In this document: one piece after another, positions 1 to 63,594 of the stretch
Position numbering within the stretch: the stretch's first letter is position 1
Layout of the letters: each line of letters begins with the position of its first letter
Assembly (NCBI GenBank): GCA_973895155.1
Contig: OZ316894.1
Location: forward strand, 18,134,563-18,198,562
From: Marsupella aquatica
Taxonomy: Eukaryota; Plantae; Marchantiophyta
DNA length: 64,000 nucleotides
Direction of reading: 5' to 3'
The notes under the pieces: model-generated
Database searches by the model: none
What the model was told of the DNA's origin: nothing
What the model saw: the letters and a program-made list of their open reading frames with translations, nothing else
Position numbers and translations under genes: made by a program

Positions 1-3000
1 ACCCACACTTACTCTATTAACATTGGCTGTCCCGTGGAGTTCCCCGTCATTGAATCCAAGTCCTTTAAGTGCTGCCATGAGCTGTGGATCAAGGAGACCT
101 TCCACCATGCCCATGTCTGAAGGGTCTTGTGCTACAGCTTTGCCAGACTGTGCATCTAGATCCTCCATTTGTTTCTCTAGAGTCTTCGCCAGCTCAAACT
201 CTGCATCTGCCTCATCAATCTTCCCCTCTCGCCTCAAGCCCAAGGCCTTCCGTTTGTGTGCCAGGGACTCTTGTTGTAGCTTCTTTCTATCTTTCCCTTG
301 GCGTAATTCCTGGCGTACTTGTTCTTTGTGGGTTTGAGCATGACTGGAAGCAGCTTGAGACTTATCAGGGGACACAGTTTCACTCAGTTTCTCTGGACTG
401 GTCGACGAGGGTGTACCTCCAGTTTTGGATTGACCGTCAGGTGACTGGTGCTCCTCAGTTGACGACTGCGTACCCGTTTCCAGTTGCTTCTCCAGGAGTT
501 TTGCTCGCCTTAACTCCTCTCGTGCTTCGCTATTCTTTCCCTCCCTCTTCAGAGCCAAAGCACTCCTCTTCAGCATCTTTATCTCTTCTTGAAGTGAAGG
601 TGTAGCTCCCCCAGCAGTACCTGCTGCAGGTGCATGGTTGTTTGAGCTTGGACCTGCTGCTTCATTGAGTACGAAATTTGCATCGTGATCAGTTGAGACG
701 GAATTCATATGCTTAGAAGGGACAGAAGATCTTCCCACTGAACCTTCTATATCTTGTTTACCAGATGCAGATGACGCAACAGGCCCAGCACTCGTGCTCT
801 GTTTAAGTACAGGGTTATTTTGTTGCCTTCCTCCCGATATGGTAGATCCAGTATTCTGCAGCTGCTGCTTGTTGTCCAGTTTTTTTACATTCGCTGCTGC
901 ATCTCCTCGCAATTGCACAGATGAGCTGTCCTTAGAAGGAGGTTCCCTAGAAGGATGTCCCAGCCCAATGCTCTGAAGAGCAGCCAACAAGCTCGAGTCA
1001 AACACATCATCTTCCTCTTCGCTGTCATCTTCCTCAAGAACATTTTCTGTAGGTGCATCCCATGTTTCACCACTAAGCAAGTCAATAGACGGTACTTGTC
1101 CTGAACCTGCCACTGGAGCATCTGGAACGGAGGGTGGATGGTCAAAGAGTGGAGGGAAGAAATCCGTTGTGCTTCCTATCTCGCCATATTCTCCTTCAAA
1201 GGAGGGGTCACGAAACTGAAAATCCTCTCTCATGGTCTCTTCGCTTTCCTTATCCGGACCATGGCTGTGGTTTATGCTTGCAGACTTCATAATTGCATGC
1301 CATATCGGATCTACAGCTGGTTCTGTAGCCATCTTTGTATAGGGTGGATTGGCTATATCAAGCTTGTGCCCACTGCTCTGGTCTTTCTTTTCTAGCCCAG
1401 CTTTTACCGCTTTTGAAGGCGCAGGGAGAGTATTCTTATCTGTTCTATCAGCAGGCTTTTCTGGCTCCCGTTTCCACCCAAAGGCCTGCAAAGCATTGAG
1501 CAACTCCGGGTCCTGCATATCTTCGTCAGTCACATCCTCATCATCAGATTCATCGCCGAAAGCACTCGGTCCAGCTGGGACAGACTGCTTCGAATGGGAA
1601 ACTGACTCCTTGTGAAGGTTCTTGCCTGCATCCGATGCTGCATTGTCAATCTCTTGCATCTCTTTTTCCAGTACCTTCCCTTGCTTTAGCTCTAATTCTG
1701 CCTCATCCACCTTTCCTTCACGCTTCAAAGCCAAAGCTCTACGCTTGTGGGCAAGAAGTTCCTTCTGAAGCTGGAACTTTCTGGCATGATCCTTCGGGGG
1801 GAGTTTCACAGCCTTATATGGCTGTACTGGTATGGGTGAACTGTGTGTTGCAATGTCTTCCTCTTTCTCGGGTTCCTTGTCTTTCACAAATGTATCCTCT
1901 TCTTGCCAACCAACTGACTTCAATGCTGCAACCAACTCCGGGTCCATGAAATCATCTGCACCAACCTCCACTTCCTCTTCCTCGTCTTCCGAAACGAATC
2001 CTGCAAGTGGAAGAGTCGGAACAGGCGTCTGTCCTTTTCTTTGCGGAAATTTGGGAACGCTAGCGGCTGGTTGAAGGCCATTTGCTTCCAGATTCTGCTG
2101 CATCTTTTCTAGCTTTTGTTCAAGAACTTTGGCCTGTTTAAGCTCCTCCCTTGCCTCCTGAGCCCTTCCCTGCCTCTTCAGTGCAAGTGCAGACCTCTTG
2201 ATAGAAAGTATCTCGTCCTGTAGATTCTTCTTTTCTAATGGGCTGGGCTTCACAATACTCTGCAATGGGGGTGAAGGCTCTTCCTCCTCAAATCCCATTG
2301 CTTTCAAAGCAGCCATCATCTCAGGATCTCTCATATCATCGTCATCTACATCTACACCATCATCGACGTCGTCCAAAAGGTCCTCCAATCTCACTGTCCC
2401 CGAACCCTTGGGGCCTCCCGTCGGTTTGCTGGATGCTGCTGCGGTTGATCTAATCGGGTGAGAACTAATGGGTTGAGACTTCAGAGCTTCAAGCTTCTGC
2501 TCTAATACTTTAGCTTCCTGCAGCTCAAACTTCGCTTCAGCCACTTTTCCTTCACGTTTAAGGGCTAATGCTCGACGCTTATGAGCCAATATCTCACTCT
2601 GCAAACTTGATTCTTTTGCCACAGACTCAGCAATATGGAAAGCCTCCGGGCCACCTGTCTGGGGATCTCGAGATCGTTCCATGTTTGCTGCTTCTTCCTC
2701 CCATCCCATGGACCGGAGAGCTGCTATCATACTCGGATCATGGATATCATCATCTGTCACATCTACATTGGGGTCATCATCGTCCTCTGCGAGGCTGAAT
2801 GAAAAAGGGATGTCAGCTTCGATTGGAGTTAAACTCGAGCCCTTTCCTCGACCCATACTCGCTTCCTTGTTCAAACTCCGCATCAAAGCAGCCAACTCAT
2901 CATCGTCATCCTCATCTTCATCCTCCTCTTCTAACAGCGCCATTTCCTCCAACTTCCTTTCCAACAATTTGGCCTTCTTCAACTCTTCCTTAGCCTCGGC

Positions 3001-4984
3001 TGCCTTTCCCTCGCGCTTCAAAGCAAGGGCTCGTCTTTTATGAGCTAGAATCTCAAGCTGAGTAGGGCTTTGCTTGGCAGGTTTTTTCTTGCTTTCGTCG
3101 TTTGGCAAAGAATCGCTTATCTCTGCTAACAGGTCCATATCAGATGTTGGGCCCTTCTTAACCTTTTTCTCAGAAAGATCTGCTTCTTTCCACCCGAGGT
3201 CCTTAAGAGCATTGAGTAGGTCGTCGTCACCTCCATCTTCGCTCGACTTTTTTGCAGTCAGCACGTGACGAGAAAATGCTCTCTCCGGTCCTGAGCTTTG
3301 GCTCCCCGCGTCCTGTACATCAATTAAGGTGAGATTCGATTGTCAAAAGAAAGGAAATCAAATATGTCTTAAGTCAGAACTAGGTCCAATTAATCAATCT
3401 AAGGATAAAGCAAGAGTCCTCTAAGGATTTACCGTGAACAGTTTTGTCAAACTCATTGCCTTTCTAACCTTCGACGACCAGAACGCATTGGAAATCGTTA
3501 CCTTCGCACTCTCAGGTGACTCCCTGTTGGATGCCTGCACAGGACCATCTGTTGATACGGTTGCTTCTGCTTGGGCTTTGCGCTGACTGATCGCCAACTT
3601 CTTGAGCGATAATTCAAGAGCGTCCGCGTCACGGCCTAATTCTTTGTGTCGCTTAAACGCTTGTAAGGCTTCTGCATTCTTACCTTCTCGCTTCAAAGTG
3701 GAGTATATCTTCTTCTGTTCAGAGGCTTGCTCTCTTAATTTTTCAGGAGAAGTATTTTCTTCTTTTGATTCAATTATTTTGTCCTTCGAAGGTGACACTT
3801 CCGCACTTCCATGATGACCGTCGTCTTCACCGCCCACCAATTCACTCCCACTGGAGATCAGGGAGTGCATGTCATCACCCAATATTTCCTTCACCAATGC
3901 GTCATCCTCTGCTACGCTGCTCGCCTTTGACGCACCTGTAAAATTGGGAAGTACCAAAGACGTTGGCATCGCTATTTTGCATCTCTCGTGACCTAATTTG
4001 AAATTTGACAAGCCTGGGAGGAGAGCAAGTGTCCCGAACCTTTCCTGCCTCTGTAGCGAGCTTGGAAGCGAGCAGCCTCTTCGAGCTTCTTGCAGGGCTC
4101 ACAAACGCGCACTGCGGTATCACCCTGGCCACGCAAGAACACTTTCGAACTCGAACAAGTTCCACAGAATATGCCTCCACATCTGCGACAGTGATGCTAA
4201 ACGGATATTGCAAGTCAGACACTGGACTTAACTAGCCAGGAAACACTGAAGATAAAGAGCCTCGCCAAATTTCGCCATCCAAGCAATTCAAACGAGTTAC
4301 AACAGTCTCAAGAAGAAAGTAAGGAGCCCGGATTACGAAATTGTCGGATTCCAGACACGTAGCGCTCAGAGTGAATGAACAGGGGAGAGCCTTGACAAAT
4401 ATTCTTTTCACAAATTTCAATAATATGCCATCCACGGTAACGAATTTGTCCTAATTATCAATGAAAGACATCCTGTAGGATAGCCCAATCTCGGATTTCG
4501 TTAACATGGTGCAAATGAGGAGGAACATAAAGCCTCAAGTTTCTAGTCTCACTGGAGTGACAAACAGAAACTTAAAAAGCCAACACAAACAGGGGATGCC
4601 ACATCAATCTACTCGGCAATTCCAAATTTCGGCAACGAGGCCATGAGCTCTGGATGAGGAGAACTCTATCGGCTTCAGCGATGGTAAACCTCACCGGAGT
4701 ACCCCATCGCAGAGCAGAAACGTAACAAGCCAATTCCTGAACCGACGGAACCGAAATATGGTTCAAACGCGTATCACGTCAATCAACCAGTTCAAATTAA
4801 GTACCACACCAGACGCAGCGAACTCAAATCCACGGCTAAAGAACAGAGAGTAAGGCACGGTGTCTACCTTACGATTGAAGAGAGAGAACGGAGTTTGACA
4901 GGTTTGACAGGACGATGCGTCCAACACCCAGGACGAACCCTTTGCTGCCGGTTTTGCCGGCAACCCGATCTTCTCAATCCCCAT
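1..4984 (-). CDS. FYVE4: FYVE-domain endosomal protein, FYVE4/AT1G61690-like; 3' end runs out of the window. Exons 4984-4868, 4196-4040, 3935-3502, 3312-~13 (possible donor GTAAGT starting at 12)
   Basis: The spliced translation [39 protein letters not shown]|[44 protein letters not shown] has the FYVE WxxD, RKHHCRxCG and RVC motifs. GT-AG junctions keep frame. The 3.3-kb fourth exon is in one frame at every point checked and carries repeated [13 protein letters not shown] modules. The N-terminus matches my recollection of Arabidopsis AT1G61690. Confidence 0.88.
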
Positions 4985-5536
4985 CGATCCTCTCGGCGGT
5001 TCACCAAAACTCGATGTCACAGTCGATCTCCAGGACTGCTCTGCTCTGTTCTGTTCTCGAATCAATCTAGCAAGCAAGTAGTGAGTGACTAAAACACGGA
5101 GAGAGAGCAGGAACGCCAGGCACTCGAGCCTACGTCTGCACTCACACGACAATCATGGACCCGAAGATCTTCCGATCACTTCATCCCGTCACTGCGAATT
5201 GCACCGACGAAATTGAAAGGCGCCGACCACAATCTAAACTTGTGGGAGGAGAATCCTTGTCCCCAGAAGACGGTCATGGGCAAATGGATCGATCTTCAGG
5301 CGCAATTGAATGGAATTTGCAGGTGGTGACTCCGATGACCACCAAAGGCGCGTGAAAGCTTTTCTGTGAGGGAAAGCCCCGCGCACTAGAGCACTGTCCT
5401 ACTGAAGACGGAAGATGGGCTACTGTACTGCGGTATTGCCTTGTACCTACTGCAGTACCGAGGGCTCTACTGTGGTAGTCTGGGAACCTCGTACGGGTCG
5501 TGGTAATCTTACTAACGTATAGGGTAATGACAGTTT

Positions 5537-5960
5537 GGACAGTTTGGTCTGGGGTTATTAGCCTTACTAGATTGTAACCCTCTGACCAAAAAGTGAGTAA
5601 ATCTTGACCGGTGACAGCAAGGAAGTATTTCTAAGCTTTGTGTGAACAGATTTTAGAGTAGAACCCCAGCCCAAACAAGCATTATCATAGGTAATGCCTG
5701 TCCCGAAAAAAGACTATGGGGTGATTTTTTTGGGCAAAGGATTATGGAAATGGTAGCGCCTAGTAGAAAAGGTTACTCACATGTAACCCTTTCTTCCTGA
5801 CAAGAATAATTACAAAGTATAAATGCAAGTCCGCTATGGGGTTACTAGCCTGTAACCTGGGACCAGAAAATGAAGAAAACCTGAACCAATGGTAGTTGGG
5901 AAGGTTTTTCTGAGTTGTCTTGAGCATAGTTTGGGTTAGAACCCCAGCCCAAACATGCCT
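5537..5960. mobile_element. Two diverged Tourist/Harbinger-like MITE copies (~5537-5680 and ~5825-5960) within a ~290-bp tandem duplication
   Basis: Left end gtttggtctggggtt is the imperfect inverted complement of right end aaccccagcccaaac. The right ends (ccaaacaagc, ccaaacatgcc followed by tta) resemble Tourist TIRs with a TTA target. Flanking sequence (ttttgggca..gattatgg) is also duplicated. Confidence 0.5.
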
Positions 5961-6413
5961 TATAATACATAATTTCTAACCAGAAAAAGTTTACTTTTGG
6001 GGCAATAGATTATGGGAATAGCAAGTGAGTCCAGAAATTAATGTTTATATGCCAATAACCTGCCTTCCTGGCAGAATTTACCCTTCTCTATTTTCGAGGG
6101 CTACAATCTAGAGACTTCTGATAATTAACACCTACAATACAGGGTAGTTGACTTACAAATTTGTAGTGCCAAAGTTGATTGAAACCAAAGCAAGGAGGAG
6201 ACCCAAAACACACAATAAAGGGATCTAGGAGAAAAATGTAGGGGGGAATATCAAGGAGTATTTGTTGTCATCTATCCTCCCACCTCTTAGGCTATGTTGC
6301 ACCAATTACACAAAGCCCCAAAAGTGTTCCATCCATGTCAATCCTGTTTGTGACATTCGCCACAAAGTAAAACTGAACTCATTTGTGAGAGTGAAATGGG
6401 CCAATCTTGTACA

Positions 6414-6756
6414 TGTTAGGTATTTACTCAAGGTCTAGGGTTATGGCATGTAACCGTAGTTAGACTAACCGTAGTCGGAGACGTGGTTAGGTTAACTAGG
6501 ATGCACACTATATGCCAAGCGGTGGTTGCTTGGATAAGTGGAACTTAGGCTCATTGTTACGGAGCCACTTGAGAGATGAGGAGAGCTTACACTGTGGAGA
6601 CTTGGTTTAGCCGACGGGCTTAGAGTTTAGTAAAGCTCTCTTGTGTGTTCCCGTGGACGTAGCCTCGAGGAGGTGAACCACGTATCTCTTGTGTCGACTA
6701 CTTGCGCGTTGGATGTGTCATGTGCTTATCGTTATGAGTGTCATCTATGCTCAACA
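6414..6756 (+). repeat. 5' LTR (343 bp)
   Basis: Starts with TG directly after the TSD and ends with CA 2 nt before the PBS. Confidence 0.85.
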
Positions 6757-8225
6757 ATTGGTATCAGAGCATGCCTGGCAGGTGACATTGTTCGTGACGG
6801 GATTTCATGACGGTTTTTTTTTTCAGCGTTGAGTGTCGGTGGATTTCCCGGAGTTTCGTCGCATGGAACTTGGATTTTATGGGCTCAACGGATAGATCGG
6901 GGCAAGGGCTTTCTAATGGTGCGAAGAAATCACTGAACGGAGATTGTGGTGCGGAGAGATCTAAGTTTTCATCGTTCTGGATGTTGTGAAGAAAGTTGGC
7001 AACATTCATGCTCGACGGTTTTTTCAGAGGAGGGACCAGAGTTTGTTTACTCGATGGTGTGAGCTCTATGGCAAAGGAGACGTCACATACTATAGCTCCG
7101 CTTGTAGATCGGGACGAGCTGGTCGTTTTGGTAGTTGATTTGATACCAAGTGAGTACCGTGTGCGACGGGACGAGAAAAAGAAGCGTTCTGATTTTCTGA
7201 CCGGCTATGGAGTCTTCTTTTGCCTGAGCGGGATTTCTCGTCATTGCGCTCGACTCGGAGGGAGAGATGTGAAGTACTTGGGCTTAACGGAGAGATCATG
7301 AAGAGGTGATCGTTTTGAGTCCAAGATTGACGGTTTTGCCCATGGGAGGAAGGAGTTCTGAGTTTTTGCCACTGATTGACCAGAAAACGGTGCGGGTGTG
7401 CAAATCTTTCCAACCCTCCGACATCGGTTTCTGATTCCTCACCTTAATCCGAATGTTACAAGGTGCAAGCTCTTTTCGTTTGATTTCCACAAGCATTTTT
7501 GGATTTCTTATGGGCCGATTTTTTGTTCAAAAAATACTCTCTCTCTCTCTCTCTCAAAAGAATAAGCTGACGAGGAGAGGATCAGCCTTGGATCAGCATT
7601 AGCATGAATATGCCTTTCCTCAACAACGAGGACATACAAGAGACAAAGCTGCAGGACACTTGTAAAAGACAAGATACCTAAAATATATGATATATGTATA
7701 CAGCACAGGATACCATGCACATATAATATCCACAACCAATGCCCAAACAAAAAGCTTCCCGCTATACTATGACTACCATCTCAACCGTTGATCTATCCAC
7801 AGAATATCTGGGCCATCTATGCACAAGGCAATCTCAAAAGATTACCCTAAAATATGACCCCGCATAGCTGCGCTGCCTTCCGCAAGAATAGCCAGAAATA
7901 TTCTATATCCATATGCCACTTCCTGCAGTCTACAGAGACACAAGGAATCACCAGAGAAATAGCAAGGCATGGCAGCATGAGTATCGTGCGACATTGGTAG
8001 ACAGCACAAATGGCAAGCAGCTCGTGAGGGGTAGAGGATTGGAGCGCTGGAAGGAGAACGTGCAATGAGCAACTAAATCAACAGCATCCAGCTGACAGTC
8101 ACTCGTGCTCACAATGAGCTCCCAACCGGTTCAGGTGCTACATCACAGACACGTAGCTGCATATCTAAAATGTTTGAATGTGCAAAATTACTTGAATGTC
8201 TGAATGCCGCCTCTGTATGAACAAA

Positions 8226-8512
8226 TGACGATTTAGAATAAATAGAATGTTGTGGTGGCTCGCCTATTTCCGGCCCATGTCTCCCCATAGCCGTCTAGAC
8301 ATTGTTGCAGAAACATGGGACGCGGAATCGTATGAATGAAATACGATCTCACTCCAGTGGCGGGGGCTGAACGTACGAAGTCACTGGAGGGGTGAATAGA
8401 TATCGTCCGTCTATTCCTGGAGAGAGATTATGGACTATGCTCAATGTTGTGGACACAGCATTAGAGTAATATTGTCACCTAGTACAGGCCCAGTGACTAA
8501 TTTCACCTGGGT
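8226..8512 (+). ncRNA. Candidate structured RNA (or ssDNA) element, copy A; family unknown
   Basis: Helices: 8226-32/8471-77, 8264-73/8417-26, 8274-83/8310-19, 8327-33/8341-47, 8352-61/8380-89, 8394-8401/8409-16, 8438-50/8455-68, 8488-93/8507-12. Compensatory changes relative to copy B. Confidence 0.6.
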
Positions 8513-9796
8513 AATAGCGTAATGAGTCTAACCTGTAAGCAAGGGTGATCTTTCACTGTCACAGAGGAAATTTATGCTTTGATATCGATAACAGGTGAAA
8601 TCCTATGTCAATGTCTTTATTAAAGGCTTGATAACTAAAAGTGGTGGCCCTCCCACCACGTGCCCGTCCAAACTCGTTTCTCAGCCTTGAAACAAGTCGA
8701 ACCTTGCACTAACACGGAATGTTGGGGCAAGTTCTCCCCGACTATACTCCTTGTCGTCAGCGACCCCTCCCATACGAAGCCGCACTTGCCCTCGTCAGCA
8801 CAACCGTCGCTCAACGGTCTTTGCTATCTGCACAAGCAACCAACCAACCGGTAAGAACTTGTCTTGATCTCGGAACTCCCAAGACCCTTGTCTTGCCTCA
8901 AGCTCAACAGTTGTTAGTAAGTAGGTCAGCGGATAGAGCCTCCCAGGCCCGCATGGCCTTGCCATAAGCTGAAACTAAGGTCGACATCACTGTTCGTCCA
9001 GAACAGTCTATCTACCGGATGTCGCCCAAGCTTCCCCACTTTCTACCCGTCAATGGCTGACCGCCCTGCCTCCAGGACATGCCCATGGCCCAAACTCAGT
9101 TTGTCACAAACTAGTAGTAACACGCCGGGACCATTCAGTTTCTAGATCTTAGCCACCTCTCTGCGAAACCGGGTTTCGCTCAACCTCTCACCATGCATCG
9201 GGACCAGATCTCAATGGCAGCCCCCAGAGTCTACTTGGTTCTACCTCTCCAACATCAGGTCCCCATGGGAACCAAATGCGGTTTGGTCACTGTTCGACTT
9301 CGGATCGGCAAGAGGGACTCCCCCCATTGCAAGCCTCAAAACCAAAATCATCCAATGCACAATCAGAGAGCACCATGAGGTAGATTTCTTCATTAGCTTT
9401 CCAACGAGCCCAAGAACTCCCCCAACGGAGATCCGGTCGTCGAGTTATGTTTGTTTCCGCTTCAAAACTCGAAACGACGTATCTTCGTTGATCGCGATCA
9501 GCTCGAGCTCAAACTTGAGAGGACCACTCCCCTCATATATGCTTCTGGGGACCTGCCACCCCCGGACCAGCTTTGGTCCCCTATCTTTGGCCCCCTACCC
9601 AAGGGTCCGTGGGCCCCGCCACTTAGCTCGAAACGAAGATAATTGAAAACCTTCTGTAACTTGGCCTCGAGCGCAAATTATGGCATAAGGGGCTAAAAGT
9701 TACGGCCCTAACCCCGCTCTGGTCCAGGCAACCCCCCCTGGTCCAGGCAACCCCTTCTTGGTCCATCGATGCGCGGCGACTCTAATCGAGTCTAAA

Positions 9797-10258
9797 TCGG
9801 CCATAACTTTTGGCCCCTAGGTCCGTTGGCCAAAAAATATGCGGCCCCATGATCGGGCTCATGTGGGGCTTCTCAGGCCCCTATGGTGATCCGTTGGAAA
9901 AATAGTTCATTTTTCCGTGATCGGCAACGGGCCCAAACTACAAGCATGCGGCTTGAGTCGGCCATAACTTTTGGCCCCTGGGTCCGTTGGCCGAGAAATA
10001 TGCGGCCCCATGATCGGGCTCATGTGGGGCTTCTTGGGCCCCTATGGTGATCCGTTGGAAAAATATTTCATTTTTTCATGATCGGCAACGGGCCCAAACT
10101 ACAAGCATGCGGCTTGAGTCGGCCATAACTTTTGGCCCCTGGGTCCGTTGGCCGAGAAATATGCGGCCCCATGATCGGGCTCATGTGGGGCTTCTCGGGC
10201 CCCTATGGTGATCCGTTGGAAAAATAGTTCATTTTTCCGTGATCGGCAATGGGCCCAA
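9797..10258. repeat. Tandem array, 161-bp unit, ~2.9 near-identical copies, inside CpG-rich TE-like sequence
   Basis: tcggccataacttttggcccc recurs at 9797, 9958 and 10119 with only a few substitutions per unit. Confidence 0.95.
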
Positions 10259-10545
10259 TAAAGTTAAGTGGAGCGCGCTTTTCTCAAGTCTTGTCCTTGC
10301 TCTTACTAGCCTCCTCTTTGTTAGTTGCATCCCTAATGGCCATGATGGTAGCAAATCTAAGAGGGGCTCAACGCTGGAGTTAGGCAACGCCGGAGCAATT
10401 ACGAGTAGGTGAAAGTTGTAGTCGCGACTCTAAACTATCTATATGGTGTAAACTTATGTTCATATGTATCTGTATACTCATGTTGTTGCACTGGGAATCA
10501 ATGGAATAGCGAACATGTGAACAATAAGACCTATTGCAGGTATTA

Positions 10546-10811
10546 CCCTATACTCCAAAAACCTTTTCCTAAAAGGGGCAACACATGATGACCCATATGA
10601 CCTGGCTTCTTATTACACAAAAGACCAACACATGCCATAATACGTCACTACTGCGCCCTATACTCCAAAAGAATATTTATAAAAAGGGCAACACATGATG
10701 ACTCATGGCCTGACATCTTATTACACAAAAGACAAATACAGGCCACAGTACTCTGGTACAGAAATATAATATGCCCTATGCTCCAAAAACTTATTTAAAA
10801 AAAGGGCAACG
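10546..10811. repeat. Diverged ~110-118-bp tandem repeat, ~2.3 copies
   Basis: ccctat(a/g)ctccaaaa...aaaaggggcaac recurs at ~10546, ~10656 and ~10774. Confidence 0.75.
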
Positions 10812-11231
10812 TGACTGCAACTTCCCGCTATACATGTCTGGCTACCTGAGCCATGGATTTACCCAAAACGGATCTGGAACGTCCAATGCCAAATGGATCC
10901 TAGAAGGATACCCTAAACTAAGAACCAAGACAACGGCGCTACTAACAAGCAGCCCAGCCAGCCACAGCAACTTCTGAACACAATCCACACCACTAGCACA
11001 TCCAACACTGGAACGCTGCTAAAACCAAGAAGAGACAACAACTGACACAACACTGGAGGGACCAAGCAGATCGTGGGACACTGGAGCACAGCAAGGCGTG
11101 GACTGAGGAACAGTGACTCTGCATCAGCCAGCACATCGTGACTCCATGGGGACGCACCAAAATCAGGTTCACAGCATATGTCCATTTGTGATTAATAACT
11201 CACATATGAATGATGTCTCTCATTGAATGGA

Positions 11232-11534
11232 TGACAATAGAACACTGCCGATGTAGAAAAAAAATATGCCTGGATGACTCGTCTTTTACCGGCCCATGTC
11301 TCCCCGCAGCCGTCTAGACATCGCTGTAGAAACATGGGACCAGAAATTGTGTCTACTGTAACATAATTTCAATCCAGTGGCGGGGGCTGAACGAAGACAT
11401 TGGATATGTGAATGGAAACAGTCCACCCATTCCCGGTAGAAGAACACGGCCTATGCTCAGTACTGTGGACACAACACTCGAGTAATGTTGTCACCAAGCA
11501 GCACCTGGTCTTGAACCAAATTAAACAGGGTGCT
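11232..11534 (+). ncRNA. Candidate structured RNA (or ssDNA) element, copy B; family unknown
   Basis: Helices: 11232-38/11487-93, 11282-92/11433-43, 11293-302/11329-38, 11343-52/11361-70, 11372-81/11396-405, 11410-15/11427-32, 11454-66/11471-84, 11500-07/11526-34. Confidence 0.6.
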
Positions 11535-48600: not shown

Positions 48601-51600
48601 ATCATGTATCAATTTTATGACATTGAGATAACCAATACCTTCATCCATTTCTTCTTGAGACATCCTTTTCCTCAACGGATAGTCCACAATGATTTCCTCC
48701 AGTTTATTGTTGCCGAAGTACCTTCGCCCCACTTTTGGCTTTTGTCCTCTCTGTGTAAGTAACCATGTACAAGAATACACCTAGCCATCAGGCATTGCTT
48801 CAAGAGGATGCTCAGGGATAACCGATGAACAACATATGTGATTGGCACCTCAATACGCCCTTCCCGAGAAGTACAATACTTACAGCTTCAAGTTCAGTTT
48901 CGCTCAACAATTGATAGGCTGGACTTTGCCCTTCCGTTGCCATTTGCCCAGAAAGTGGAGCAGAACTCGTGAGCTTGAAAAATTTATTACTGACCTCAGA
49001 CTGATGTATGAGATGATCAGGAGGCTGACATCTACAATGAAAGCACATTCAATAATGAGCCACGTGCATGATGCAGGTGCTGAGTTAGCGTACGCTAGTC
49101 TAATGAATAGAAATGGTAGCCATCAGAGAAAATCAAGCTACACCAAAAGGAACCTCTTCAATAAATTGTGACTGAAATCCAGAAAAACTAGAGGCAGTGT
49201 ATCTCTTCGCCAAACTCATGCACCACAATCATGATACATTAAAGACAACTCCAAACTCCTTAAGTAGGAAAAGTAGTCAGTACCCCAAAACTTCAATCAT
49301 GAATCGAAAGAGGTCATATTCACAGGCACCCGGAAATAATGGCAATCCCAGAAACAGCTCTGCTGCAACACAAGCTAAAGACCACATATCAATGGCAGTG
49401 GTATATTTGAGCTGAAGCAGCACTTCGGGAGACCGGTAGAATCGACTCTGCATACAAAGACAGAAAAAACTTAAGGTGAGCTAAAGATGATTCCCCGTGA
49501 GACCTGGATACGCGTAAATCCAGTTCTGCGTGCACAACACCGAAGTGAGTGACACAAGAATCAACCAAGAAATTGCCTGAAATGTCACATCTTTCCTTTG
49601 CTAGCTTAGAAACTTGCCATTGCAAAAGCAGACAATTACTTGTTTTCCAGATTCTGAAACAATTACATATATCTCAACAAAAAAAGAAGAAGCCTGTTTC
49701 CAAAAACACCATAGCAACTAAGGTGTGAAATTCCATTCTCAAACGAGCCAATTGTCTCTCAACATCTTAAACAAGTTTACAGAAAGCGAATTCATGTCTA
49801 ATAGCCGTCGGCAGTGTTCAGTACCTGTATGTATGTGTATACTGTGCGGAAGTCCATACACGCAGCGCCGAAGTCAATCAGCTTGATCTCCGCCGCCTCC
49901 AAGCTACCACACAATAGCTCAATCAACATCATCCCAAGAGCTTGAAGGAGATAAATTATCACACAATAGTTCCATTTGACAGAATTCAACAGCTTGAAGG
50001 AAATAAAAATTCTCATCAGATTAACGATCTCTGAAACATAATGAGAATCGAGAAATAGAGTTACGTCAGGTCATTCGAAGACCGCGCGCATTTTAGAAAA
50101 GACCGGCAGGAGCTTAGATTGCTTAATAAAAGCGATGAGTGAACCATGTTACCTTGGTTGTAGTAAAATATTTTCGGGTTTAAGATCACAATGGAGAACT
50201 CCAGCTTCTCGCAGCGCTGTAAGAGCCTCTAGCATCTGCGTAGTCAGGAAACTGTGTCACTCGGTTCATTCCAAACAGTTTCATTTGCGGGTTCAATTGG
50301 TTGAGCAAAACTTGTCAGGTATGAAAAGCAAGACAATCAAGCATGAAGGACATTCTCAAAAACAGACAAGCAGAAAATCCAAAGCTTGGCAGTGCAGTTT
50401 TCATGGCCTCAATTTGGCTTTATGATAGACAGAGTGTTTTTGTTCTCATGCATTTCGCTTAGAAAAGACGACGCATGTCGAAAAACATTGAAGGAAATAT
50501 GAATAGAACTCAAGAAGAAAAGAGACACGCCTGTATTGTGAACCGCCTGACAAGCTTCATTGAAAGACCTTTGTGCTGATTGAGCTTCAACAACTCATAT
50601 CTGCAAGAAAAAATATCATTACATGCTGCTGCGTAGGCGTCCACTGGGCTATGCAAATTGCTCACTTCAAGTCTTGACAAAAAACCTCAATTAAATCACC
50701 ACCAATTATCTCTACTCCTATATATCTGACTTTGAGAAAGAATCTGTTGCTTCAGAAAGACACAAGACAACCTCATCGACTGCGCAGCGTAAAATTGACA
50801 TTAGCCGAAGGAAAATAGACAATTGACTCACATGAAAGGAAAGACAACCGGACAAAGAGAGCATCCCGCTAACCTAGTATAGTACATTGAAGCCTAACAT
50901 CACTATTAACTCGGCATAAGCAGGAATGGTCTTGCTTAGGGAAATTACTTACAGATTGGCGTTCAGAAGCTCAAAAACCAAACATAAGTGACCCGCAAAC
51001 TCAAAGTGATCCAGAATTCGCACAATCTTGTACCTTTCTGTGTACTTGTGGAGCTGAATTTTCACAAAGCCTTCGTCAGTCGTCACAAACGGAGACTATA
51101 ATCATCTATACAATGGTTAAGCTCCACATTGTACCCAACTATATTAAACACATAGAGCGCAAACAAGCATGATCAACTGAGCTCATTAGGCAAATATTGA
51201 AAGAACAACACAGGTGTAGAGAGAAAAGAGAGTAACAGCAACATACCCGATAGCAAATACCGATCTCAACTTTTGCCTGATTATAGTAAGCAGGTTGGTT
51301 TTTTATTACTTTCACGGCTACGTCCCCTTGAACGTTTGGGTCAGTCGACGAACACCTGCAAACTTGCCCAAACGATCCCTTGCCCAGCGTGTCCTTCACA
51401 ACATACCTATGGAACCCATACTTTTCATCAAAAATATATCCAACTTCACGTAATTTGCTTTACACTCCATACCGAGAAAAGGCGACACGTAGTTTCGTTT
51501 GAAGAACAATATATTAACCAACATTACTAGTCCGACCTATACGGGATCTACTAGAAAGGGAAAAGACCCATGCTATCCCTAAACAATCTTCCTCTCCACC

Positions 51601-58058: not shown

Positions 58059-58134
58059 AGACCAGGAGGCCAGGTGCAATGCATCTAACCCATACTCATT
58101 GTAGGTAGATGCATTGCACCTGGCCTCTTGGTCT
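58059..58134. repeat. Near-perfect 29-bp inverted repeat with an 18-nt loop
   Basis: 58059-58087 agaccaggaggccaggtgcaatgcatcta pairs with 58106-58134 tagatgcattgcacctggcctcttggtct; the single non-Watson-Crick pair is G-U on the + strand. Confidence 0.9.
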
Positions 58135-62590: not shown

Positions 62591-63594
62591 CAACCCCAGC
62601 GCCCCAAACATCTATATAACTACCCGCCAATGAGAAGCTAGAGTTGGAGTTCAGGCTTCCAGAGTGAAACCTCTAGACCATGATTCTAGGGCCCCACCAA
62701 AATTTACCTAAATGTAAAGAAGGATGAGATGTTACATATGTCAAAATAATAATTCATGATGATTTTTGTCATCATTTTTTTAAATATTCAAAGAACTGGT
62801 ATTGCTCCTACTCTTGTTTGTTAATATTCAAAGAATGAGCATTCAGGCTAGTATTCTCTTTTATTTATATTCAAAGAGAATGGGTATTAAGAATGAGCAT
62901 TCAGGCTTGTATTCCCTTTTATTTATACAGCTTACATTGTCACTAAAGGTGTTTGAATTTCCAATATTGTCATCATTTTTTGTATTTACAAAAATATCAC
63001 GAGTTCCATATATAGTTCCCCTGGTTACGTTGGTAAACTTGTCATCCATATACGAAACCATGACATTTTTATAAATACAAAAAACCAGTGGCAGTATTTG
63101 AATTAAAATATCTTTAGTGGCAAAGTATTTAAAAGCTGTTTATTTATATTCAAAGAGAATGGGTATTCAGGCTCATTTTCTCTGTTGCTAGTATTTGGGC
63201 ATCAGGCTCGTACTCTCTTTGATTAATATTCAAAGAATAGTCACTTGACCTAGTACTATTTGTAGAAACAAAAGCTTGGATGGACCCAACAATTTACTAC
63301 ATAAAGCAATTGTTGCCTTACACCAAAAAGAAAAAGGAACCGGGCATGGATTGCAGTTAACTATTTGACTACTTTGGGGATAAAGTAATCAAGACATCAT
63401 CATGATGATACTGAGTAATGACTTGACATTTTTTGTCAAGTCGTTAAATTACTGAGAAAACCCATTCAATAATGTAATTGAAAACCACCAGCAAACGGTA
63501 AGGAGACTGTTGACAGGTCGCATTTCAATCAAAAGTGTAAACAATGTTATCTGACTCAATTTAAATATTTTCAACAAATTCATCCAAGTTTTGC

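Follow-up and report, generated by a model that had tools for sequence, protein, structure and literature searches.

Introduction

Hammerhead ribozymes whose conserved blocks stand in a non-circularly permuted order have been published only from environmental RNA and DNA, along with one doubtful bacterial case, and those of type SGC have been found only in metatranscriptomes (Eckert et al. 2023, PMC10085705). In retrozymes and Penelope elements, ribozymes occupy corresponding positions of tandem units (PMC7761336, PMC11167929). Long terminal repeat (LTR) retrozymes carry type III hammerheads within their LTRs and have the primer site in the circle (PMC7761336, PMC11722881). Here we analyze a 64,000-nucleotide stretch of the liverwort Marsupella aquatica (GenBank assembly GCA_973895155.1, contig OZ316894.1, positions 18,134,563 to 18,198,562; "the window"), in which a structured RNA element of about 260 bases occurs twice. 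The element is real, conserved, and multi-copy. On balance, and by analogy with the systems above, we favor reading it as a caged, permuted (S-G-C) hammerhead of a nonautonomous, retrozyme-like repeat, predicted to be self-cleaving. Coordinates are collected in Table 1.

Two diverged copies share one RNA fold

A preliminary description of this DNA had reported two diverged direct copies of a multi-helix element, at least six covarying pairs, and a preference for the plus strand. All three points were borne out. Alignment recovered exactly two direct copies in the window (A, 8226-8482; B, 11246-11498), 74.9% identical over 259 columns (E = 3e-39), with no third. Helices were placed by hand, and the resulting 65 modeled pairs were compared between A and B: 44 were unchanged, 6 were compensatory, 10 carried a one-sided change that preserved pairing, and 5 were broken. 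The compensatory pairs were precisely the six named earlier, namely, U-A/A-U in P1, C-G/U-A and A-U/G-C in H2, C-G/A-U in H3, and A-U/G-C in each of H4 and H5. When 30 substitutions were placed at random on 130 stem columns, six or more compensatory pairs arose in 0.1 to 0.16% of 100,000 trials and five or fewer broken pairs in 0 of 100,000, a null that is lenient and makes these figures optimistic because the helices were derived from the same two sequences. G-U outnumbered A-C by 14 to 4, favoring the plus strand, and the folding z scores of the two copies agreed (-2.45 and -2.28 on the plus strand; -1.59 and -1.94 on the minus strand).

Two peripheral parts of the described fold survived incompletely. 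The outer helix stands in the model, but its inner two pairs are doubtful, since 11488 T>C is common in the public sequencing run X1; the sixth hairpin forms in both copies, but its pairs are not individually conserved (69% identity). The predicted second pseudoknot has six pairs, which are all Watson-Crick in B and include two G-U pairs in A, where the sequence is GUCCGU. Six-frame Pfam scans of 5200-13500 gave no credible match and no linked reverse transcriptase remnant, in keeping with the proposal that selection acted on an RNA fold rather than on a protein. We regard the element as almost certainly a selected RNA fold.

Independent support came from contigs of public runs, which were aligned to copy B with variants left unphased. 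Run X1 contributed 101 contigs on B (70 of them less than 95% identical), run X6 contributed 25, and run X5 contributed 2; run X7 had 0 contigs on copy B. Summed X1 depth on B, which does not equal copy number, peaked at 2808 in H1, compared with ~37 for exact single contigs. The contigs suggest that the element exists in tens of diverged copies. Forty of 105 variants were listed, of which 34 lie inside the outer helix and were placed on the model; the 6 in the sixth hairpin were excluded. Eighteen of the placed variants fell on unpaired positions and 16 on pairs. Pairing is retained by 11 of these 16 alone, the change at 11460 is rescued by a listed partner change, the P1 variants at 11435 and 11437 match partner letters in loose contig ends, and those at 11368 and 11488 break a pair. 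The C at 11488 is the majority letter in X1 (392 of 556 depth), and a partner change is absent among the variants listed. In P1, the unphased variants and loose contig ends suggest three pair states. Rearranged copies of the element also exist: among X1 contigs on 11200-11560, one passes over 11340-11448 and another jumps back from 11403 to 11312.

The invariant segments probably hold a hammerhead-type core

The core blocks are the parts most alike between A and B (89% and 91%); the whole element reaches 77% and the flank upstream of it 64% (shuffled, 56 ± 2%). In copy B, a C-G pair and then an A-U pair terminate the lower H1 helix (CCCAUGU/ACAUGGG), with a C following its 5' strand and GAA preceding its 3' strand. 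In hammerhead numbering, this helix would be stem III: it carries A15.1-U16.1 (A11332-U11299) and C15.2-G16.2, after which comes the cleavage base C11300, and G12-A13-A14 (11329-11331) directly precede A15.1. The same register is present in A. Stem I would be a pseudoknot joining the H1 internal loop to the H3 loop. Its duplex is worth -7.3 kcal/mol, and its strands, mostly free in the nested ensemble of B (probability unpaired, 0.62 to 0.82), are invariant between A and B, so the evidence for it is complementarity and not covariation. Positions 11382-11394 of B read GGGGG-CUGAACGA, stem I ending immediately before CUGA.

The preliminary description had recognized no known family, but its invariant segments hold a hammerhead core in the published non-circular order (PMC10085705). 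One segment described as invariant, GGGGGCTGAACG, is trailed in A by a 4-base insertion. The blocks of B run S, G, C (11293-11305, 11329-11338, and 11382-11394), an order that requires pseudoknots. The element shares with type SGC (HRIMA-1 and variants) this order, the GUC site, GAAA, a stem I pseudoknot of 5 bp, a helix (here H3) that closes off the CUGA block, and, 3' of stem III, an optional hairpin (here H2) (PMC10085705). H2 and H3, the counterparts of SGC helices, each carry compensatory changes between A and B. An S-G-C pattern in which stem II was not required matched once on both strands of the 64 kb, at B, and shuffles of B matched it in 14, 1, and 0 of 20,000 cases at 4+4, 5+5, and 7+5 bp, respectively. 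Judged from these letters, the segments probably constitute a hammerhead-type core, and with that core present, ribozyme leads among the options listed earlier; guide RNA and single-stranded DNA structure are lowered.

Table 1. Features of the element and its surroundings (window positions; counterparts in copy A where given)
Feature	Position	Copy A	Strand	Remark
Copy B	11232..11493		+	Outer helix 11232-38/11487-93; core letters intact
Copy A	8226..8477		+	Decayed; 4-base insertion in CUGA turn, T at 8381
P1	11283-92/11433-42	8264-73/8417-26	+	Closes five-way junction
Predicted stem III	11293-99/11332-38	8274-80/8313-19	+	7 bp, identical in A and B
GUC site	11298-11300		+	Copy B
Predicted cleavage site	11300..11301, 3' of C17	C8281	+	By analogy to hammerhead numbering
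Predicted stem I pseudoknot	UCCCC 11301-05 with GGGGG 11382-86	8282-86/8362-66	+	
Helix X	11306-10/11323-27		+	Loop palindrome GUCUAGAC; predicted clamp holding G12
H2	11343..11370		+	Variable; position of optional hairpin in type SGC (PMC10085705)
H3	11372..11405		+	Closes CUGA block; corresponds to stem I/II joining helix of type SGC (PMC10085705)
CUGA turn	11387..11394		+	CUGA-A-C-GA, one base beyond CUGANGA
Candidate stem II	AGAC 11395-98 with GUCU 11312-15		+	Starts right after A9; -2.1 kcal/mol, no covariation
H4	11410-15/11427-32		+	
H5	11454-66/11471-84		+	
Predicted second pseudoknot	GUCCAC 11421-26 with GUGGAC 11465-70		+	H4 loop with H5 tip
Sixth hairpin	11500..11534	8488-8512	+	Loosely kept
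Tandem unit 1	7557..10580		+	~1229 bases without nested insertion; right edge approximate
Tandem unit 2	10581..11795		+	~1215 bases; left edge approximate
Nested insertion	8640..10429			AGT...ACT ends; duplication CTAAA 8635-39, 10430-34; younger, splits unit 1
(CT)n tract	7537..7555			Left of unit 1
(CT)n tract	11796..11810			Right of unit 2
LTR-element relic	6414..12063		+	Noncoding; GTACA duplication both sides; empty-site joint 6408-12066
5' LTR of relic	6414-6756			TG...CA
Primer-binding site of relic	6759-70			Presumably for initiator tRNA-Met
3' LTR remnant of relic	12015-63			49 bases

Tandem units and genomic context

The two copies occupy corresponding positions in two ~1.22-kb units that fill the interval between the (CT)n tracts, one predicted ribozyme apiece, and once the nested insertion is removed, the predicted cut sites of A and B are 1224 bases apart. 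Upstream of A and B, homology extends over ~520 bases (score, 92; shuffled, 31 ± 4). On the downstream side, one block aligns with this same periodicity (score, 46, without shuffle control), and the comparison of the nearest downstream flanks was at chance level. The head-to-tail arrangement with one ribozyme per unit resembles that of non-LTR retrozymes and Penelope-like elements, but the units here, unlike theirs, are 1.2 kb long, old, and without a linked reverse transcriptase gene or remnant (PMC8557442, 10.64898/2026.07.22.740005, PMC11167929). Among the Penelope-like elements, Naiad and Chlamys prefer microsatellites and are without canonical hammerheads, some carrying split core halves; (CT)n is not among the targets named, and the accessible portions of these papers report no Chlamys element from liverworts (PMC8557442, 10.64898/2026.07.22.740005, PMC11167929). 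No empty-site joint for unit insertion into (CT)n was found among the 15 of 299 joints listed. Contig depth right of the second (CT)n tract (~310 at 11882) is closer to that of the units than to that of the LTR leader, making a clean target duplication less likely.

The locus resembles LTR retrozymes in being noncoding and multi-copy, in carrying two direct ribozymes, predicted ones here, ~1 kb apart, and in being embedded in an LTR-type element that has a primer site for tRNA-Met (PMC7761336, PMC11722881). It departs from LTR retrozymes in that internal tandem units, not the LTRs, harbor the elements, the predicted hammerhead is of a type other than III, and the primer site at 6759 is upstream of both elements, outside the predicted circle. 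X1 contig depth is ~170 to 280 over the units outside the element, versus thousands for the surrounding LTR family. Given this lower depth and the lack of a coding match, the 1.2-kb units look like cargo separate from the LTR family. The mobile-element association proposed earlier stands, in that the element belongs to a mobile repeat.

The nested insertion is 1790 bases long, high-copy, and outside the element proper, and the joint 8634-10430 is present in contigs. It holds 2.9 copies of a 161-base repeat (9797-10258), has no Pfam match, and possibly represents a long solo LTR. For 12002-12015, no partner in the manner of a terminal inverted repeat was found. Other repeats were noted in and around the units: three copies of a 110- to 118-base repeat span the inferred unit junction (10546-10824), and 5564-5710 and 5842-5988 are direct copies, 72% identical, within the repeat hosting the LTR relic. 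The word ACCCTAAA, which we liken to the plant telomere repeat, stands at a matching place in both units (7844-7852 and 10910-10919), ~430 bases before the element, maybe by chance.

Departures from the hammerhead consensus

Several observations count against a self-cleaving hammerhead. The S-G-C pattern was designed after the sequence had been inspected, and a control allowing any order and any distance was therefore added; it matched 18 of 20,000 sequences with helices kept and loops shuffled and 28 of 20,000 that were fully shuffled. With the pattern post hoc, the rate from this control, a chance of about 1 in 1000 for the hammerhead core register, is taken as the fair figure. In an any-order tile scan (n = 487), one unrelated tile matched beside two on B. 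That match, at ~50494-50605, has the order G, C, S and a G-U-rich stem I and was taken as chance.

The letters themselves depart from the consensus. The seven-base CUGANGA core is absent, B having one extra base and A a further 4-base insertion. The extra base in B corresponds to the natural A6a variant, whose activity was low where it was assayed; natural hammerheads also include ones in which stem II is a single pair or 10.1-11.1 is mismatched (PMC3088659). These core variants (Perreault et al. 2011, PMC3088659) resemble the element in the A6a insertion and in a very short or mismatched stem II but differ from it in being circularly permuted, with the stem II-GAAA strand unbroken. Here the bases 3' of A9 do not pair with those 5' of G12, and the continuous stem II-GAAA block is absent. 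The candidate stem II is weak, invariant, and in competition with the top pair of H3. Its U11315 is separated from G12 by 13 bases, which fold back on the linker to form helix X. The motifs of the published SGC descriptor (CGAAA and CUGAUGA(U)G, with linkers of 0 to 8 and 0 to 15 bases; PMC10085705) are absent from A and B.

Compared with type SGC (PMC10085705), the element thus has an extra turn base, AGAAA rather than CGAAA, a stem II discontinuous with GAAA, and a 23-base hairpin between stem I and G12. A 260-base fold that includes a second pseudoknot encloses its entire core, and it resides in plant nuclear DNA. The cage (P1, H4, H5, and the outer helix) far exceeds hammerhead needs and is unexplained by cleavage alone. 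By sequence, the element lacks two defining hammerhead features and hence is a variant rather than a member of type SGC.

Variation and age add to these difficulties. G8 (11393) reads A at 482 of 1683 depth in X1 (29%, 13 contigs) and at 9.6 of 24.5 in X6. Position 11393 belongs to a CpG, and of the nine CpG sites within 11283-11493, six have such changes among the variants listed; the G>A change fits decay of dead copies via CpG, short of proof. This picture of core variation rests on 40 of 105 variants, and further core changes are possible. Outside the element, the units are ~62 to 64% alike, unlike young retrozyme dimers. Copy A, with its 4-base turn insertion and a T at 8381 that is private to it (X1 depth is all A, 304.8 of 304.8), is likely dead.

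Searches for homologues

Rfam had been suggested as a comparison for the element, and none of its families matches it. With Rfam 15 covariance models, tRNA-Pro was the sole gathering-level match in the window, and scanning down to an E value of 10 added two chance matches (E = 7.4), both outside the element. No outside homologue was found in viral contigs, in a first metagenome scan, or in plasmids and phages. Looser patterns yielded 49 metagenome, 4 genome, and 1 viral loci; none of these 54 was credible (best E = 0.006, in a bacterial-looking context), and a G-run plus CUGA was absent after all 50 looser-pattern matches listed.

Several familiar identities were rejected. For group I intron R/S elements there is an S-like AGAUAUAGUCC, but the upstream P7 partner is absent; for the hairpin ribozyme, AGAAACA is paired in the element; and twister and group II domain V were dropped on inspection of the sequence. 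A solo LTR was rejected because the TG...CA outer helix lacks a target duplication.

The literature searched, from which subscription papers mostly fell outside, held no SGC-type or split-stem hammerhead in a plant genome and no description of this RNA. In it the SGC term occurred in PMC10085705 alone, and the accessible portions of PMC13725137 and PMC10162972 describe no SGC-type or split-stem form.

Other features of the window

The window is nuclear land-plant DNA and gene dense, with Psb27, CBF5, an FSH1 hydrolase, and ribosomal L4 recognized by Pfam (30 of 120 long frames scanned). Its CBF5 protein shares 92% full-length identity with one from Calypogeia fissa; among named plants, Marchantia and Riccia follow. 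A tRNA-Pro(CGG) gene (13506-13577) is followed by two decayed part-copies of its 3' half plus trailer (~13650-13710 and 13780-13810). On the minus strand, 1-3342 holds an open frame of >1100 codons in which helical 'ALALKREGK' units recur, together with acidic spacers; its only TPR/UBA matches are subthreshold. Long near-perfect hairpins at 58059-58134 (29-pair arm) and 62933-63127 (~195-base fold-back) are possibly small-RNA precursors or miniature inverted-repeat transposable elements.

Alternative explanations

A noncatalytic cis element of a retroelement RNA, serving dimerization, packaging, or reverse transcriptase binding, with the hammerhead letters due to chance or a silent ancestral relic, is the strongest competitor, although we consider it rather unlikely. 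On this view, the palindromic GUCUAGAC would bring two RNAs together by loop-loop pairing, with the fold locked by contact between GGAC and GUCC. The self-complementary loop forms a more stable duplex (-10.6 kcal/mol) than the candidate stem II does, the element has the same sense as the LTR relic and stands 3' of the primer-binding site, G8 is often A, and most of the 260 bases fall outside the core. What this explanation leaves unaccounted for is the exact hammerhead register of GUC, GAAA, and GGGGG-CUGA (~1 in 1000), and the X1 depth of the units, ~170 to 280 against thousands, shows that they are not a standard part of the LTR family.

Also conceivable, but improbable, is a ribozyme of a distinct class with a hammerhead-like site and other wiring, in which G11396-A11397 would serve as G8-A9, the five bases that follow CUGA would loop out, H3 would replace stem II, and the H4/H5 domain would be needed for catalysis. 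Such wiring would render the frequent 11393 G>A harmless; no change at 11396-97 occurs among the 40 of 105 variants listed, and the cage covaries as though required. It does not explain the invariant GUCU, and the accessible portions of the literature searched offer no precedent for a CUGA turn with a five-base insert.

Very little favors a host noncoding RNA gene family (RNase MRP-like, telomerase-like, or another RNA polymerase III transcript) with copies scattered as pseudogenes. Its length of ~260 to 300 bases would suit, and the C-rich/G-rich pseudoknot resembles the P4 helix of RNase MRP, but the element has no Rfam match down to an E value of 10, the plant upstream-element motif was not found near either copy (with up to 2 mismatches), no telomere template was found inside the element, and the duplicated unit is 1.2 kb in tens of diverged copies. 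A single-stranded DNA structure working in a DNA-based mobile element seems more remote still. Folded DNA tolerates G-T pairs too, and with no enzyme gene linked, the element class is left open; against this, DNA parameters leave the model with far less stability (-5 and -14 versus -54 and -62 kcal/mol), and the element stands mid-unit rather than at an end and carries an RNA-catalysis signature. An ordinary duplicated repeat or coding remnant with unselected structure is scarcely credible, for all that the folding z scores are modest (-2.3 to -2.5), given that compensatory (6) and consistent (10) changes outnumber the broken pairs (5), and given the identity gradient and the lack of a protein match.

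Predicted mechanism and significance

If the element is the caged hammerhead that we favor, the plus-strand RNA would be cut after C11300 (C8281 in copy A). Stem II would likely be the four-pair AGAC/GUCU, and helix X, not a continuous strand, would bring in G12. P1, the outer helix, and the H4/H5 pseudoknot would likely cage the core and keep the cut ends together for rejoining. By analogy, self-cleavage of intact copies is somewhat favored. A two-unit transcript cut twice would then release a 1224-base RNA with its ends held by stem III and P1. The freed monomer could circularize and be copied back by the reverse transcriptase of another element, as proposed for retrozymes (PMC7761336, PMC11722881); we put forward this circle formation and retro-copying tentatively, as possible. 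Naiad and Chlamys elements are candidate mobilizers, on the grounds of their microsatellite preference, their reported lack of canonical hammerheads, and the split core halves of some (PMC8557442). A Penelope hammerhead needed protein to cut, and insertion in vitro did not need cleavage (PMC11167929).

The fullest version of this proposal, a novel ribozyme architecture of land-plant chromosomes consisting of a knotted S-G-C hammerhead with a broken stem II clamped by helix X and a 260-base cage, which cleaves itself and religates to a 1.2-kb circle, marking a liverwort retrozyme family invisible to all hammerhead searches, is doubtful. Should the element prove not to cleave, a conserved 260-base, two-pseudoknot fold in a liverwort repeat would still be undescribed in the literature searched. 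If the proposal is true, a genomic multi-copy plant family would mean that S-G-C wiring is used by eukaryotic mobile elements. The break between stem II and GAAA would overturn the working assumption of three uninterruptible blocks (PMC10085705), and it would explain why descriptor searches have reported retroelement groups as lacking hammerheads (PMC8557442).

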